Origin: an uncultured Gemmatimonadaceae bacterium
GTDB taxonomy: Bacteria > Gemmatimonadota > Gemmatimonadetes > Longimicrobiales > Gaopeijiaceae
Direction of reading: 5' to 3'
Assembly (NCBI GenBank): GCA_963790115.1
Contig: CAWBNF010000001.1
Location: 3,446,436 to 3,510,435 of the forward strand
DNA: 64,000 bases
The notes under the pieces were generated by a model that saw only the letters and a list, made by a program, of their open reading frames with translations, did not search any database and was not told where the DNA came from. Made by a program: the position numbers and the translations under genes. This document shows positions 38,504-47,556 of this stretch, one piece after another (position 1 is the stretch's first letter; every line of letters starts with the position of its first letter).

Positions 38504-40313
38504 TCAGGCCCGCTGTGCCACGGCGGGCGCGAACTGCAGCTCGTAGAGCCGAGCGTACAGACCGTTCGCTTCGAGAAGCTGCTCGTGCGTTCCTTGCTCC
38601 CGCACCGCGCCGTGATGGAGCACCACGATCCGATCTGCGTTCTGCACCGTGGAGAGACGGTGCGCGATGACGAGCGACGTGCGACCGTGGAGCAGCTCGT
38701 CGGTGGCCGCCTCGATACGCTCCTCGATCTCCGAATCGACCGAGCTGGTCGCCTCGTCCAGAACGAGGACGTCGGGGTCGAACGCCAGCGCGCGCGCGAA
38801 GCTGACGAGTTGGCGCTCGCCTACGGAGAGCGTCGCGCCGCGCTCGCCCAGCGGGTGCTCGTACCCGTCCGAGAAGCGCTCGATGAACGACGACGCGCCG
38901 ACCCGCTCCGCCGCGGCACGCACCTGCTCGGGGGCGATGTCCGGAGAGCCCAGGCGAACGTTGTAGCCGATGTCCTGGCTGAAGAGGAACACATCCTGAA
39001 GGACGAGGCCGATACGCGAGCGGAGGTCGTGGACGCGCACGCGGTCGATAGGGATCCCGTCGACCACGACACGTCCGCGCGTGGGGTCGTAGAACCGCAT
39101 CAAGAGGTTGATGAGCGTGGTCTTGCCCGCCCCGGTGTGCCCGACGATCGCGACCTTCTCGCCGGGCTCGACGTTCAGGCTGACGTCGCGCAGCACCCAG
39201 TCCGGCTCGCCGTGCTCGTCTGAGCCGTACGCGAACCAGACGCCCTCGAACGCGATCCGCCCCTGCGTGGGGACCGGCATGGGCACGGGGTCCGGCAGGG
39301 TCCGTGATGGCGATCGGATGATCGAGCAGCCTGAACACGCGCTCGGATGAGGCCATCGCCGCCTGCAGCAGGTTGTACTTCTCGGACAGATCCTGGATCG
39401 GCTGGAAGAATCGGCGCGCGTACTGCAGGAACGCCGCGATCACGCCCACCGAGATCGCCCCCTCGAGGCTCCTGACGCCGCCGTACCAGATGATCAGCGC
39501 CAGCGCCAACGACGTGAAGAGCTGGATGATCGGGAAGAAGAGCGCGTAGTAGGTGATCGACCTGAGATGCGCCTGCAGGTGGTCCTCGTTCAGCGCCGCC
39601 AGGCGAGCCGCGTCGGCCTTCTCCCTGTTGAAGAGCTGGACGATGCGGATGCCCGTGAAGCGCTCGTGCATGTACGCGTTCACGCGCGCGATCCGGACAC
39701 GGATGTCGCGGTACGCCGTGCGGATCCTGGCACGGAACAGGAAGGCCGCGACGAAGACCAGCGGGAGCACGCTGAACGTGACCAGCGCGAGCTGCCAGTT
39801 CATCCGCAGCATCGCGGCGACGATGAAGACGAGCGTGAACACGTCTCCGAACACCGTGACCACGCCCGAGCTGAAGAGCTCGTTGAGCGTCTCCACGTCG
39901 TTGGTGATGCGGGTCATCAGGCGTCCGATCGGGTTCTTGTCGTAGAACTTGAGATCGGTGCGCTGAAGCTTGGTGAAGATCTCCCTGCGGAGGTCGTACA
40001 TCACCGACTGGCCCAGCCAGGTGGTGATGATCGCCTGTGCGTAATCGAAGACGAACCCCAGGACCACGGTCCCGAAGAAGGCGGCGGCGAGGATGCCGAT
40101 GTAATGGACGTCGCCCGAAGGGATCGCGTCGTCGATCACCACCTGCGTGATCCACGGCCCGACGACTTGCATCCCCGCCGCCAGCAGCAGGACCACGAGC
40201 GCGAGCGCGACCTGCCTCCAATAGGGGCGGAGATACTGGAGCAGGCGACGCATGAGGCGGGCGTCGTACGCCTTTCCCAGCGCCTCCTCTTCGTGGAACC
40301 CGACTTCGCTCAT
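38504..40313 (-). pseudogene. ABC exporter, fused permease/ATPase, one frameshift
   Basis: ORF 38397..40313 holds the permease half. After a +1 shift near 39290, ORF 38504..39286 holds the ATPase half: Walker A GHTGAGKTT, signature LSVGERQL, Walker B VLVLDEATS. The ATG overlaps the hisIE stop (ATGA). Confidence 0.85.
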
Positions 40314-43074: not shown

Positions 43075-43676
43075 AGGGCCTCCTCTGCGGCCGCGACGAA
43101 GTTCGAGATGATGCGGCGGCCGGGGTCGGAGCTCTTCTCCGGGTGGAACTGGAGGCCCCACGTGTTCGCGCGCCGCGCACCGGCGGCGAAGCGGATGCCG
43201 TCGTACTCGGACCAGGCGATCGCGTCCGCGTCGTCGTCGGGGACGCATACGTAGGAGTTGGCGTAGTACGCGACCAGATCGCGCACGCCGTCGGAAGAGG
43301 GGATCGTTCCCCGTCTCCACGTCGTTCCACCCCATCTGCGGCACGATGCGCGCGTCGAGCAGCTCCACCTTTCCAGGCAGGAGGCCGATGCCGGAGCCCT
43401 CGGACTCCTCGGACTCCTCGAAGAGGAGCTGCATGCCGAGGCAGATTCCCAGGCAGGGCATTCCGGCCGCGAGCGCGGCGCGAATCGGCGCACGGTCGGC
43501 GAGGAAGCGCCGCCGCCGCGGCGCCGAACGCTCCGACGCCCGGCAGCACGAGCGCGTCCTGGGCGAGGGCTTCGCTCCAATCGGCGGTCACGCGTGACCC
43601 GCGCGCCGGCGCCCTCGAGCGCCTTGCCCAGGGAGTGCAGGTTGCCGGCCCCGTAGTCGAAGAGCGCGACTCTCAT
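43071..43676 (-). pseudogene. hisH: Imidazole glycerol phosphate synthase glutaminase subunit, at least four frameshifts
   Basis: MRVALFDYGAGNLHSLGKAL (ORF 43071..43676), LVLPGVGAFG (ORF 42881..43591), PCLGICLGMQLLFE (ORF 42478..43461), and a C-terminal GLQFHPEKS. Confidence 0.85.
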
Positions 43677-44752
43677 CGCGTGCCACCTCCTTCAGCGCCG
43701 CGAGGCGGCGATCCAGGGCTTCGAGGAACGTGTCGAGGAGCGGCCACGGCCCCACCGTCACGCGAAGGCCCTCCCCGATCCCCGGAATCCGCGTGAACGG
43801 CCTCACCTGGACGCCGTCTTCGCGGAGCGCTCCCGCGTCTTCCGCGGCCGAGCCCGAAGGCGCGCGAAAGAGGATGAAGTTGGCGCGCGAGGGGAGGGGC
43901 TCGAGGCCGCGCGCACCGAGCGCGTCCTGAAGGCGCGTCCGGTTCTCGACGCACTCGGCCACCCGGTCCGTCCACCCAGCCCTGCTCGTCGCGCATGGCC
44001 GCGACCACGACCTCCGCGGTGAGTCGGGAGACCTTGTACGGTCCGCGCGACTTCTCGACCTCGAGCACGGTCTCGGGCCGTCCGATCGCGAAGCCGCAGC
44101 GCAGGCCGGCGAGCCCGTAGGCCTTCGAGCACGTCCGCGCCACGAGGACCTTGGGCTCGCTGGTCGCGAGGTCGATCAGGGTCTCGCCCGCGAAGTCGGC
44201 GTAGGCCTCGTCGATGATGACGAGCGGGCCGTCGGCGGGGCGGGCGTCCAGGAGGCTCGCAACCCAATCCGCGGGGGCGGAGCCTCCGGTCGGGTTGTTG
44301 GGGCGGCACACGTAGACGACGGCCGGATCGTCCTGGAGGAGGGCGCCCGGGATCGCGCAGGGCGTCGGCCCTGGTCGACCGCGTGGGGCTCCATCCCGTT
44401 CATGCGCGCGAAGTCGCCCACCATGGAGAACGTGGGCGTCGGCGTACGCGACGACGGCGCCGGGCGCGGCGGCGGCCCGAAAGGCCGAGTCGAGGATGTC
44501 GTCGGAGCCGGCGCCGGTCGTGACGCATGCGACGTCGACGCCGAAGCGGTCGGCCGCGGCGGAGCGCAGCGTATTCGCGTAGACCTCGGGGTAGCACCGG
44601 AGGTCGTCCGGCGTCGCTGCGCGCATCCGCTCGAGCGCCGCCGGGTGCGGGCCCCACAGGTTGGTGTTGTCGCTCAGGTCGACGGGGACCGGGCGTCTGC
44701 CCGGGTCGTAGTGGCGGAGCGATGCGTAGTCCGGCGCGGGGAAGGGGGTCAC
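43673..44752 (-). pseudogene. hisC: Histidinol-phosphate aminotransferase, at least three frameshifts
   Basis: GTG 44752 lies 5 nt after GGAGG and overlaps the hisD stop. The pieces are LSDNTNLWGPHP..., VYVCRPNNPTG, IIDEAYADF and the PLP-lysine motif TCSKAYGLAGLRCG. The C-terminal piece is in ORF 43588..43962. The exact stop is uncertain. Confidence 0.8.
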
Positions 44753-46010
44753 GAGGACCTCCTGGCGGCCGCCGCGGCCGCGTGCGCCGGCAGGCCTTCG
44801 GCGCCGGCGAGCGACTTCGACGTCGGACGCCAGCGCTCCGGCGCCCGCGGCGCTGATCTCCTGGATCGTGTAGCTGCGCAGGTAGTGCGCGGTGGACAGC
44901 CCCGAGAAGCTGTGGGCCCGTCCTCCGGTGGGGAGCACGTGGTTGGCGCCGGTCAGGTAGTCCCCGAACGCCACGGAGGCGAACGGCCCGACGAACGTCG
45001 TGCCGGCGGTGCGCACGCGACGGGCGTCGGCGTGCCGCGTCGGCCGTCATGACGCTCAGGTGCTCGGGCGCGTAGCGGTTCACGAAGGCGATCGCCTCGT
45101 CGAGCGAGTCGGCCAGGAGGATCGCGCCGGCGCCCTCGAGCGCGGCGGCGCAGATCCCGGAGCGGGGGGTGGACGCGAGCTGCTCGGCCAGCGCGCGCCT
45201 CGGCGGCGCGGGCCAGCGTCGTCGGACGTGGTCACCAGCACGCACGCGGCGTCCGGATCGTGCTCGGCCTGGGCGAGGATCTCGGTGGCGACCAGGCGAG
45301 GATCCGCCCCGCCGTCGGCGAGAACCAGCACCTCGGAGGGGCCCGCCGGCGAGTCGATGAGCACCTGGCCGGCGACCTGGCGCTTGGCCTCGGTGACCCA
45401 GCGGTTGCCGGGTCCCACGACCGCGTCGGCGGCGGGGCACGACTCGGTGCCGTAGGCCAGCGCGGCGACCGCGCCGGCCCCGCCCACCGCGAAGAGCCGG
45501 TCCGCTCCGCCGATCACGCTGGCGGCGAGCACCTCCTTGGGTGGGAGCCCCGACGGCCCGGGCGGCGAGCAGACGATGACGTCCGCCACGCCCGCGGCCT
45601 TGGCCGGCACCACGCCCATGAGCACCGAGCTCGGGTAGGCGGCCCTCCCGCCGGGGGCGTACACGCCGACCCGGTCGAGGGGCGCCCAGGTGCGGGTCAC
45701 GCGCACGCCCGCCTCGACCTCGAGGGTGACGTCGGCGGGGACCTGGGCCTCGTGGAAGCGGCGGATGTTGTGGGCGGCGCGCTCGAGCGCGGTGCGGATT
45801 TGGGGCGACAGCTCGGCCACGGCGGCCTCGCGGATGCGGGCCGGGACCTCGAGCTGCCTCGAGGCGCACGCGGTCGAATCGCTCGGCCATCTCGAGGAGC
45901 GCCGCGTCACCCCGCTCCCGCACGTCCGCGATCAGACGGGCGACCGACTCGGCGAGCCGGGGATCGTCCCGGGGCGTCCGGTCGAGCAGCCGCTCGACCG
46001 TGGCGTGCAT
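44749..46010 (-). pseudogene. hisD: Histidinol dehydrogenase, at least four frameshifts
   Basis: The pieces are in ORFs 44400..46010 (MHATVERLL...DVRERGDAALLEMAERFD), 45080..45910 (VGVYAPGGRAAYPSSVLM...[12 protein letters not shown]...[11 protein letters not shown]...QAEHDP) and 43673..45016 ([23 protein letters not shown]). Confidence 0.85.
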
Positions 46011-46052: not shown

Positions 46053-46935
46053 TCACGGCATCAGCCTCTCGATCCGGGTGACGAGGATGCCCTGCGCGCC
46101 GAGCTCCTTGAGCCGCGCGATCGTCTGGTAGACCAGCGTCGGCGTCGACCACCGCGTGCGCCGCCACCCACGAGCCCGAGTCGAGCACCTCGACGATGGT
46201 CGGCCCCGAGAGGCCGGGGATGACGTCGCGCACCTCGTCCAGCTTGGTCCCGCGGCACGTTGGCCATGAGGTACCGCTTCTCGGAAGCCCGCAGCACCGA
46301 CTCGAGCGCGGTGGTCGAGGTCGCCGATGAGCTGGCCGTTCTCGCCGGGTCCGCGACCGCCGTGCGGATTGCCGATGAGCCGCGCCGTGGACTCCAGCAC
46401 CGTGCCGATCTCGCGCAGCCCGTTCACGCGGAGCGTCGAGCCGGTCGAGGTGAGGTCGACGATCGCGTCGGCAACGCCGAGGTGCGGCGCGATCTCGGTG
46501 GCGCCGCTCACCGGGGCGATCGAGATCCGGATCCCGAGCGACTTGAAGAAGTCGGTGGCGCAGCGCGGAAACGACGTGGCGACCCGGGTGCCCGGCCGGA
46601 AGCTCGGACGCCGACGTGACAGTCGATTCCTCGCGCGCCGCGACCACGAGCCGGCACCGACCGAAGCCCAGATCGAGGAGCTCCGTGACGTCCCGGCCGC
46701 TCTCGGCGACGCAGTCCGCGCCGGTGACGCCGATCTCGGCCGCGCCGTCGGCGACGTACTCGGGGATGTCCTGCGCGCGCACGAAGATCGCCTGGAAGTC
46801 GTCTCCCAGCGACGCCACCAGCGCGCGGTCCGCTGCGAACGCCGGATGCAGCCCCGCGAGCTCGAAGAGCTCGAGGGCCCGCTCCGACAGCCGCCCCTTG
46901 CTGGGCAGCGCGACACGCATCGGTCTATTCGTCAT
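46053..46935 (-). pseudogene. hisG: ATP phosphoribosyltransferase (long form), at least four frameshifts
   Basis: MRVALPSKGRLSERALELF...FVRAQDIPEYV (ORF 45907..46935), PVSGATEIAPHLGVADAIVDLTSTGSTLR (ORF 46053..46916), and the C-terminal regulatory-domain pieces KRYLMANVP and LKELGAQGILVTRIERLM. Confidence 0.85.
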
Positions 46936-46970
46936 CAGCTCCGTTCCAATCGTCGAAAGAAATCGTCCCG

Positions 46971-47006
46971 AAAAAAAACCGCGACCCGTTCTCGACGGGC
47001 CGCGGT
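46971..47006 (-). terminator. Intrinsic terminator of the his leader (attenuator)
   Basis: The minus strand reads ACCGCGGCCCG-UCGAGAA-CGGGUCGCGGU (11 bp, one G:U) followed by eight U. It starts 24 nt after the leader stop and ends ~36 nt before the hisG start. Confidence 0.8.
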
Positions 47007-47030
47007 GGGTGCTCTGCTCGGATCTACGTC

Positions 47031-47108
47031 CTACGCGCGCACGACCTTCCCGCCACCCGTGTGGGCCGCGTGATGATGATGGTGCCGGACGTGGATCATC
47101 GTGTTCAT
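47031..47108 (-). CDS. hisL: His-rich leader peptide of the his operon (25 aa)
   Basis: The minus strand reads ATG AAC ACG ATG ATC CAC GTC CGG CAC CAT CAT CAT CAC GCG GCC CAC ACG GGT GGC GGG AAG GTC GTG CGC GCG TAG = MNTMIHVRHHHHHAAHTGGGKVVRA. That is 7 His, 5 of them consecutive. It is too short for the ORF track. Confidence 0.7.
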   Translation of the reverse strand: MNTMIHVRHHHHHAAHTGGGKVVRA

Positions 47109-47179
47109 GGGACGCCCAAGTTGTCTCGGGGCGGAGGGAGCGTCAAGGCTGGTGGGTCTTCGGACCATGGCAGTGACAC

Positions 47180-47208
47180 TTGCGTGGATAGCGCGTCAGT
47201 TATATAAC
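47180..47208 (+). promoter_or_regulatory. Candidate promoter plus palindromic operator of the arsR operon
   Basis: TTGCGT (47180-85), a 17-nt spacer, then TATAAC (47203-08). The -10 region lies within the perfect palindrome GTTATATAAC (47199-47208), 10 nt before the arsR ATG. This is an AT-rich island in GC-rich DNA. Confidence 0.45.
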
Positions 47209-47217
47209 TAGTACGTT

Positions 47218-47556
47218 ATGATAATCCCACACTCCTCCGACCGACTCGACGCCACCTTCTTCGCGCTGGCCGATCCGACCCGGCGCGCCATCCTCGCGCG
47301 CCTCGCGGAGGGGGAGGCCTCGGTGGCCGAGCTCGGCGAGCCGTTCGCGATGAGCCAGCCCGCGATCTCGCGGCACCTCAAGGTGTTGGAGCGCGCCGGG
47401 CTGGTGTCCGTCGGGCAAGACGGCCAGCGTCGCCCGCGGCGTCTCGAGCCCGAGGCGCTGGAGGCCGCGAGCGAGTGGATCGAGCGCTACCGCGAGATCT
47501 GGGAGGCCAACTTCCAGCGGCTGGATGCGGTGCTCGAGGAGCTGAAGAGGCGCTGA
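47218..47556 (+). CDS. ArsR/SmtB-family transcriptional regulator
   Basis: ORF 47218..47556: FFALADPTRRAILARLAEGEASVAELGEPFAMSQPAISRHLKVLERAGLV is a canonical ArsR wHTH. Confidence 0.9.
   Translation: MIIPHSSDRLDATFFALADPTRRAILARLAEGEASVAELGEPFAMSQPAISRHLKVLERAGLVSVGQDGQRRPRRLEPEALEAASEWIERYREIWEANFQRLDAVLEELKRR

Follow-up and report, generated by a model that had tools for sequence, protein, structure and literature searches.

The window analyzed here, a stretch of 64,000 nucleotides (nt) from a metagenome-assembled genome, carries on its minus strand a histidine biosynthesis (his) operon that is preceded by a short open reading frame (ORF) rich in histidine (His) codons and by a hairpin with a U-rich tail; this putative his leader is the subject of the present study. 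A preliminary description of the window, made from its letters alone, had drawn attention to the leader as an enterobacterial-style attenuator and had pointed out that the genome around it was very GC-rich and apparently non-proteobacterial; the host, a metagenome-assembled organism of salt marsh and mangrove, is indeed a member of the Gemmatimonadota (order Longimicrobiales). The first gene of the operon, hisG (46053-46935, minus strand), encodes the long form of the protein, with matches to the Pfam domains HisG and HisG_C, and the genes that follow it match Histidinol_dh, Aminotran_1_2 (class I/II aminotransferase), GATase/His_biosynth, IGPD, His_biosynth, and PRA-CH/PRA-PH. Based on these Pfam matches, the whole his operon, which runs to approximately position 40310, lies downstream of the leader.

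The leader ORF, which resembles hisL, occupies positions 47031-47108 of the minus strand and comprises 25 codons followed by UAG (ATG AAC ACG ATG ATC CAC GTC CGG CAC CAT CAT CAT CAC GCG GCC CAC ACG GGT GGC GGG AAG GTC GTG CGC GCG TAG), with the predicted product MNTMIHVRHHHHHAAHTGGGKVVRA; both the coordinates and the translation, with seven His residues of which five are consecutive, agree with those reported initially. The five-His run (CAC CAU CAU CAU CAC; codons 9-13; 47070-47084) is the proposed site of ribosome stalling, and the two further His codons are found at 47093-47091 and 47063-47061. A longer, 45-codon version of the ORF, which would begin at an in-frame ATG at 47168, was considered and rejected because it starts upstream of a conserved -35 hexamer (see below), in sequence that is unalignable among relatives. 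When the leader peptide was compared to Pfam at E ≤ 10, no family was matched, including PF08047.

The stop codon of the leader ORF is followed, after a gap of 24 nt, by a hairpin at 47006-46978 that can be written as ACCGCGGCCCGU-CGAGA-ACGGGUCGCGGU (the arms are also given as ACCGCGGCCCGT-CGAGA-ACGGGTCGCGGT) and that is called as a terminator by a pattern scan; it contains 12 pairs, including 9 G-C pairs, if the closing A-U pair is counted. Its left and right arms are hereafter referred to as region 3 (ACCGCGGCCCGU; 46995-47006) and region 4 (ACGGGUCGCGGU; 46978-46989), respectively, and the U8 tract of this intrinsic terminator covers 46971-46978; in 65 relatives, the hairpin is likewise followed by a run rich in T. 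The preliminary description had placed this hairpin and its U8 at the same positions (47006-46971), with the same 24-nt gap, and had counted 11 bp, one fewer than the 12 found with the closing A-U; it had also expected hisG to start about 36-50 nt further on, a distance that we find to be 35 nt, with the hisG ATG at 46935 and the sequence GGAG at 46942-46939 preceding it. Given its U8 tail and its distance of 35 nt from hisG, which leaves the GGAG of that gene outside the structure, the hairpin is best understood as a transcription terminator and not as a sequestrator of the ribosome-binding site (RBS).

The genome assembly (3 contigs, 69.7% complete, 4.07 Mb) contains single-base indels, and the reading frame of hisG in the window is broken four times; hisD (43673-46010, minus strand) is likewise distributed over more than one ORF. 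In close strains, short-read contigs have one letter fewer at approximately positions 46140, 46245, 46365, and 46597, which is exactly where the hisG frame changes, and the frame breaks in hisG and hisD look like single-base insertion errors of the long-read assembly. Programmed frameshifting and a hisG pseudogene were rejected as explanations of the frame changes because the extra letters are absent from the short reads of close strains, hisD is split as well, the assembly is incomplete, and hisG is open in relatives. The leader itself was verified by a short-read contig of a near-identical strain, which spans positions 47000-47192 with 2 mismatches and no gaps.

Both parts of the leader are rare in the genome at large. 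Runs of (CAY)5 or longer, on either strand, occur at 4 loci in the 4.07-Mb genome versus approximately 0.1 expected from base composition; the leader is the sole one of these four loci that represents a short ORF before a his gene, and the remaining three do not resemble leaders but appear to be GC-rich coding sequence read off-frame or antisense. Likewise, under stringent settings, a genome-wide scan identified just 69 terminator-like sites. Chance is excluded by the genome-wide rarity of (CAY)5 runs and of terminator-like sites.

Alignment of the regions upstream of hisG in related genomes, which had been put forward in the preliminary description as a check on the His-codon run, revealed that this run is conserved. 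Among relatives from the same genus, the element is found before hisG in 9 of 9 genomes and is nearly invariant from the TTGAC of the predicted promoter to the U tract, with flanks that are unalignable; in the same family and order, it is recognizable in most genomes. Among 80 hisG loci from a public genome collection, a His-rich short ORF precedes nearly every bacterial hisG, with carriers that include Gemmatimonas, Archangium, Cystobacter, Pyxidicoccus, Myxococcus xanthus, and Candidatus Eisenbacteria; the element was found in none of 34 haloarchaeal hisG loci. When public loci and genome relatives are taken together (approximately 70 bacterial hisG loci), 65 sequences contain both the His-rich ORF and the terminator. 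Near-identical DNA is also present in salt-marsh, mangrove, and marine-sediment metagenomes.

A single MAFFT alignment of 59 sequences put the terminators of two lineages in different registers; the sequences were hence split into type A (Longimicrobiales, including the window; alignment A4) and type B (Gemmatimonadales, Myxococcota, and Eisenbacteria; alignment A6), and covariance models were built from type A (model R1) and type B (model R2). Within the window, R1 detects the element with 154.9 bits and has no other match of substance, and the element is single-copy in its own genome. In 301 Gemmatimonadota genomes sampled across the phylum, R1 and R2 had matches in 40 and 97 genomes, respectively (union, at least 117 genomes), and R2 matched 65 of 251 Myxococcota genomes. 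A scan with an exact pattern for the type B core yielded mainly Gemmatimonadaceae and Eisenbacteria; three stray matches were located in Hyphomicrobium, Actinomadura, and Methylobacterium. The element is not universal within the family of the host; genome G015 (genus g6; locus L020) as well as several genomes of genera g6 and g28 have a hisG gene and neither a recognizable His leader nor a model match, and R1 had no match in genus g6 among the genomes listed. As some close relatives thus have hisG without the leader, parts of the family have lost or replaced the attenuator. In g18, a large-genome genus of the same order, hisG is approximately 45% identical (with an N-terminal query), and no His-codon run is found just upstream of it.

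The ORF is conserved in a manner that points to its being read as codons. Start codon and frame are kept in all relatives, changes at the His positions are almost exclusively CAC to CAU swaps or the reverse, and the N-terminal residues are free to vary; across 63 leaders, the number of His codons has a median of 6 and a range of 4-9. The conserved non-His peptide motif ((G)PTGRG or AAHTGGG) falls on nucleotides of the two pairing segments, regions 1 and 2, that are described below. CAU represents 55% of the 407 His codons in these 63 leaders (alignments A1 and A2; loci L031-L110) and 18.5% of the His codons in long ORFs of the host genome, which corresponds to an approximately threefold enrichment of the rarer codon in the leaders, in a comparison that is not a formal test, as the leader sequences are related to one another; among non-His leader codons, the GC content at third positions is 0.86. 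The enrichment of CAU is compatible with selection either to slow decoding or to weaken the local structure, and, along with the synonymous CAC/CAU variation, it indirectly supports translation of the leader.

The leader RNA can adopt alternative pairings that involve four segments. Region 1 (GCGGCCC; 47063-47069) begins 1 nt after the five-His run and can pair with GGGUGGC (47058-47052), which forms a small hairpin beside the His codons (1:2; 47069-47052). Region 2 (ACGGGUGGCGG; 47050-47060) is located inside the ORF (codons 17-20) and has nearly the same sequence as the right arm of the terminator, while region 1 resembles the left arm; because of these resemblances, region 2 can pair either with region 1, in the ground state, or with the left arm, in an antiterminator that joins 47060-47050 to 47005-46995 (2:3). 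Folding for terminator and antiterminator alternatives, which the preliminary description had left as a check, together with pair counts on the alignments, supports the three pairings 1:2, 2:3, and 3:4, which are mutually exclusive. The particular antiterminator proposed in that description, GCGGCCC (codons 14-15) paired with the right arm of the terminator, does not hold up, since this segment lies 1-7 nt past the His run and would be inside a stalled ribosome; the conserved pairing is that of ACGGGUGGCGG with the left arm. We thus discarded the GCGGCCC/right-arm complementarity, which exists only because region 1 resembles region 3, in favor of a role of GCGGCCC as anti-antiterminator with GGGUGGC.

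All three helices are conserved across the two alignment types. The terminator helix (3:4) has 94.7% of cells paired in type A and 99% in type B, with three pairs changed on both sides in the latter, and the 1:2 hairpin has 96.5% and 87.8% of cells paired in types A and B, respectively. For the 2:3 antiterminator, for which a control was calculated by sliding one strand by 1-3 columns, 90.9% of cells are paired in type A (19 sequences) versus at most 57% in the slid control, and 90.7% in type B (23 sequences) versus at most 48%. The core of this helix (GACGGG/CCCGUC) is almost invariant across three phyla, as would be expected if one strand must fit two partners. In a duplex search, the best partner of the terminator left arm was the homologous region 2 segment in approximately 55 of 63 sequences, at 4-11 nt past the His codons; compared to shuffles starting at the end of the His cluster, the left-arm duplex had a mean z of -1.62, with p ≤ 0.05 in 28 of the 63 sequences. 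An earlier shuffle test, which started 9 nt past an over-extended His cluster (mean z of -0.83), was set aside because it cut region 2 off in many sequences.

Minimum-energy folds of the leader without a ribosome contain a long imperfect hairpin (47021-47097) that encloses the His codons, regions 1 and 2, and the stop codon; this hairpin (47097-47021) holds region 2 and leaves the left arm of the terminator almost free. Its outer part is conserved within the genus only and may contribute to the ground state. The fold of a 166-nt segment has an energy of -70.1 kcal/mol (z = -2.57), with 1 of 200 shuffles as good. When a ribosome was masked at His11 or His13 and the RNA ended at the terminator loop, 10 of the 12 nt of the left arm paired with region 2. 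The footprint of a ribosome reaches approximately 12 nt beyond the A site on the downstream side (PMC4833913); stalling on the His run would thus be expected to hide region 1 while region 2 remains exposed.

Upstream of the leader ORF, we predict a promoter with a -35 hexamer TTGACG (47141-47146, minus strand), in which TTGAC is invariant in all 10 sequences of the genus, and a -10 hexamer CAACTT (47118-47123, minus strand; TAGCTT in most relatives) that is invariant in the genus; the hexamers are separated by a 17-nt spacer, and the leader ATG is located 9 nt after the -10 hexamer. The same arrangement, TTGACN-17/18-nAnnnT ending 5-10 nt before the start codon, is found in 56 of 61 distinct upstream regions from three phyla. 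Transcription is predicted to start at approximately 47111-47108, which would leave a 5' untranslated region of about 0-3 nt, and no Shine-Dalgarno-like sequence was seen between the -10 hexamer and the leader start codon. Because of this conserved promoter 5-10 nt before the start codon and the lack of a Shine-Dalgarno sequence, translation of the leader is probably leaderless or nearly so. RNA-seq data from M. xanthus provide a hint in the same direction; in three independent low-depth assemblies, a higher-depth contig (approximately 12x) begins at positions 393-404 of the AM003 locus L070, where the leader ATG is at 394, and depth upstream of this contig start is 2.5-5x, i.e., 3-5 times lower. 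The position of this break is consistent with transcription starting at the leader AUG; a break near the leader start is seen in the low-depth runs only, and the deep assemblies from M. xanthus, with contigs of tens of kilobases, are uninformative on this point. On the other side of the promoter, a divergent gene for an ArsR-family helix-turn-helix protein (47218-47556, plus strand) starts 110 nt from the leader ATG, and a short AT-rich island holds the promoters of this gene and of the leader, which point away from each other. We saw no link between the ArsR gene and the his leader, and upstream flanks differ among relatives.

We conclude that the leader very probably attenuates transcription of the his operon in response to histidine, through a ribosome-mediated mechanism, and the initial proposal of attenuation through a His leader peptide is thus supported by anatomy, conservation, and the analysis of alternative structures. 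Four features that help to define attenuators of the Yanofsky type are found at this locus, namely (i) a short ORF that lies before a biosynthetic operon and is rich in codons for the end product, (ii) an intrinsic terminator between the leader ORF and hisG, (iii) an antiterminator that uses the 5' arm of the terminator and thereby excludes it, and (iv) a 1:2 pairing placed such that a ribosome stalled at the His codons would be expected to disrupt it. In the proposed mechanism, transcription would start within approximately 3 nt of the leader AUG, and a ribosome would translate the 25 codons while the polymerase moves on. With His-tRNA plentiful, the ribosome would clear the five His codons, and GCGGCCC/GGGUGGC (1:2) and the longer hairpin would re-form behind it; region 3 would then be free for region 4, and the resulting 12-bp hairpin with U8 would end transcription 35 nt before hisG. 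With His-tRNA scarce, the ribosome would stall on codons 9-13 with its footprint over region 1, region 2 (ACGGGUGGCGG) would stay single-stranded and capture the left arm once this has been transcribed, and the terminator would fail to form, allowing for read-through into hisG-D-C-H-A-B-F-IE. If the leader were not translated at all, the long hairpin would sequester region 2 and transcription would terminate (superattenuation).

A number of observations weigh against this interpretation. With regard to the structures, compensatory changes in the 2:3 helix are all but absent (a single cell in type A, none in type B), as the core of this helix is nearly invariant; the antiterminator helix of the window genome contains a G.G mismatch (47054 with 47001); and shuffled GC-rich RNA pairs well too, which keeps the per-sequence z-scores modest. 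In addition, when the full leader is folded while a ribosome occupies the His run, the terminator persists in the fold of lowest energy (-43 to -45 kcal/mol). The terminator is in fact the minimum-energy state of the full transcript in every constrained fold, and antitermination must therefore be kinetic, with the first-formed pairing deciding the outcome; antitermination is likewise kinetic in Escherichia coli trp and other classical attenuators. With regard to transcripts, the M. xanthus contigs run unbroken through the terminator into hisG, with no sign of premature termination, and two metatranscriptomes with related sequence contribute only read-length contigs at 2-3x depth, which are uninformative on RNA ends and one of which extends upstream of the -35 hexamer. 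Finally, we know of no study of transcription-translation coupling in Gemmatimonadota.

Several other explanations of the locus were weighed against attenuation by ribosome stalling. That the His run stands beside a hairpin by chance or as an assembly artefact might be suggested by the many single-base indels, the split hisG and hisD, and the 69.7% completeness in 3 contigs, yet this explanation has practically no weight left, as the leader is confirmed without gaps by the close-strain short-read contig, approximately 0.1 (CAY)5 runs are expected per genome, and the element recurs in hundreds of genomes, a conservation that by itself already refutes it. We also regard it as very improbable that the ORF encodes a functional small His-rich (e.g., metal-binding) peptide, with the hairpin as its own terminator and the adjacency to hisG incidental or linked to ArsR. 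In favor of such a peptide are the conservation of the ORF, the ability of His-rich peptides to bind metals, and the nearby divergent ArsR-family gene. Against it, the ORF is always found before hisG in three phyla, whatever lies upstream, where flanks are unalignable; moreover, the N-terminus of the peptide varies, no Pfam family is matched, and the conserved non-His residues coincide with regions 1 and 2, whose sequences mirror the arms of the terminator.

Control of the his operon by a mechanism that does not require ribosome stalling, such as a histidine- or tRNA-binding RNA, a protein antiterminator, or control of hisG translation, deserves mention, given that stalling in this leader is itself deduced from sequence and that T-box and protein systems do control his genes in other phyla (PMC9413887). 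We nevertheless judge it quite unlikely; there is no T-box or other credible Rfam match at E ≤ 10, the His run, with its synonymous CAC/CAU variation, is the only feature conserved at the codon level, and the position of the U8-tailed hairpin relative to the hisG GGAG argues against an RBS sequestrator. An additional activity in trans, beside the activity in cis, of the terminated leader RNA of approximately 140 nt or of its peptide has a precedent in rnTrpL/peTrpL of Sinorhizobium (PMC6614838, PMC7298713) and could account for the very high conservation within the genus, which goes beyond what pairing alone requires; as this conservation can also be explained by one segment pairing with two partners, we consider activity in trans unlikely.

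Overall, the element is a classical attenuator that belongs to an uncatalogued RNA family, and the mechanism itself is textbook. As in hisL of E. coli, Salmonella, and other Gammaproteobacteria, a short ORF with consecutive His codons lies directly before hisG, exclusive anti-antiterminator, antiterminator, and terminator structures are followed by a U tract, and stalling is predicted when His-tRNA is scarce. The hisL leader of E. coli has 16 codons, as compared to the 25 codons of the leader in the window. Unlike the gammaproteobacterial leaders, the element has no detectable homology to RF00514 or PF08047 and is thus enterobacterial in logic only; it also has no Shine-Dalgarno sequence, has a promoter 9 nt before its AUG, is probably leaderless, and occurs in Gemmatimonadota, Myxococcota, and Eisenbacteria. 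A cmscan search of positions 46600-47500 (both strands; Rfam 15; E ≤ 10) detected neither His_leader (RF00514) nor a T-box, and the sole match was a spurious one to CC3513 on the opposite strand, with 17.4 bits versus a gathering score of 40.

Predicted His-leader attenuators have also been described in Firmicutes, including the Bacillus cereus group, Peptostreptococcaceae, and Erysipelotrichales (PMC9413887; PMC2965389; PMC4833913). These are likewise lineage-specific, fall outside RF00514, were recognized by comparative genomics, and combine 3-5 consecutive His codons with a terminator and an antiterminator; the likeness drawn here is one of description, and the Firmicutes leaders differ in that they occur in other phyla, have low-GC sequences, and sometimes precede hisZ, hisS, or transporter genes. 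For a leaderless leader peptide, the closest parallels are the 14 predicted leaderless leader-peptide attenuators of Deinococcus deserti (PMC4007540) and, in mycobacteria, the leaderless short ORFs with polycysteine runs (bioRxiv 10.1101/834739). In these cases, as in the window, a mini-ORF at or beside the transcription start controls, or would control, downstream amino-acid or tRNA-synthetase genes by attenuation; the Deinococcus and mycobacterial cases rest on mapped transcription starts (and, in mycobacteria, on reporters as well), whereas the start in the window is predicted from promoter spacing and the M. xanthus contig hint. The searched part of the D. deserti text (PMC4007540) does not mention histidine, and a full-text literature search, which covered few subscription journals and therefore provides absence of evidence, found no description of a His leader for Gemmatimonadota or Myxococcota.

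Other candidate leaders were seen elsewhere in the genome of the host. A Cys leader ORF (VNATPTPTMLSSSSCCCCCCRPATGERSVLPSG; C1:3893976-3894134, plus strand) with six consecutive Cys codons and a GC hairpin with T7 lies directly before a gene that by eye resembles cysH, for a phosphoadenosine/adenosine phosphosulfate (PAPS/APS) reductase, and represents a candidate cysteine attenuator; 2.6 kb further on, a second Cys-rich leader ORF (MIRLEACLCCCCRPTLPREGRLRACCA; C1:3896651-3896788, plus strand) is followed by a terminator and by a gene that by eye resembles a siroheme synthase gene (cysG). A Thr-rich leader ORF (MRALIGTTATTTTTRTTGRGPARAE; C1:857795-857929, plus strand), which has its own AGGAG RBS and a terminator, is located directly before thrS (threonyl-tRNA synthetase by eye), which makes it a candidate for threonine-dependent attenuation of an aminoacyl-tRNA synthetase gene. 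The organism thus appears to use leader-ORF switches at other loci (Cys, Cys, and Thr). Canonical intrinsic terminators are rare in this high-GC genome, and at least four of the 69 stringent terminator sites belong to such amino-acid leader switches (His, Cys, Cys, and Thr). In Gemmatimonadaceae, weak second matches to R2 were found at L208:1556-1687 (minus strand), L209:148-292 (plus strand), L204:1598-1746 (minus strand), and L207:149-252 (plus strand); these represent leader ORFs rich in Tyr codons (..SYAYYYR.. and ..YACRFYY..) on a similar scaffold of a GGCCCG...CGGGCC hairpin and a terminator, which suggests related attenuators that sense another amino acid.

It is possible, albeit at somewhat less than even odds in our assessment, that a single uncatalogued family of leaderless His leaders accompanies one long-form hisG lineage through Gemmatimonadota, Myxococcota (including M. 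xanthus), and Eisenbacteria, and that its GGCCCG...CGGGCC scaffold is re-used with other codons. In that case, the attenuators of these phyla would be modular cassettes that evolve by exchange of the sensed codons alone, and the approximately threefold enrichment of the rarer CAU codon would represent a device for tuned sensitivity. While the leader involves no new mechanism, the RNA family, for which R1 and R2 are working models, merits an entry in Rfam, as a curated family would allow hundreds of genomes to be annotated and stop these leaders from being missed or miscalled. The presence of the element in Myxococcus xanthus and in Gemmatimonas, a genus with cultured species, makes the prediction directly testable, and the leader provides a probable means of controlling histidine biosynthesis in the Gemmatimonadota, a phylum with almost no experimental data on gene regulation.

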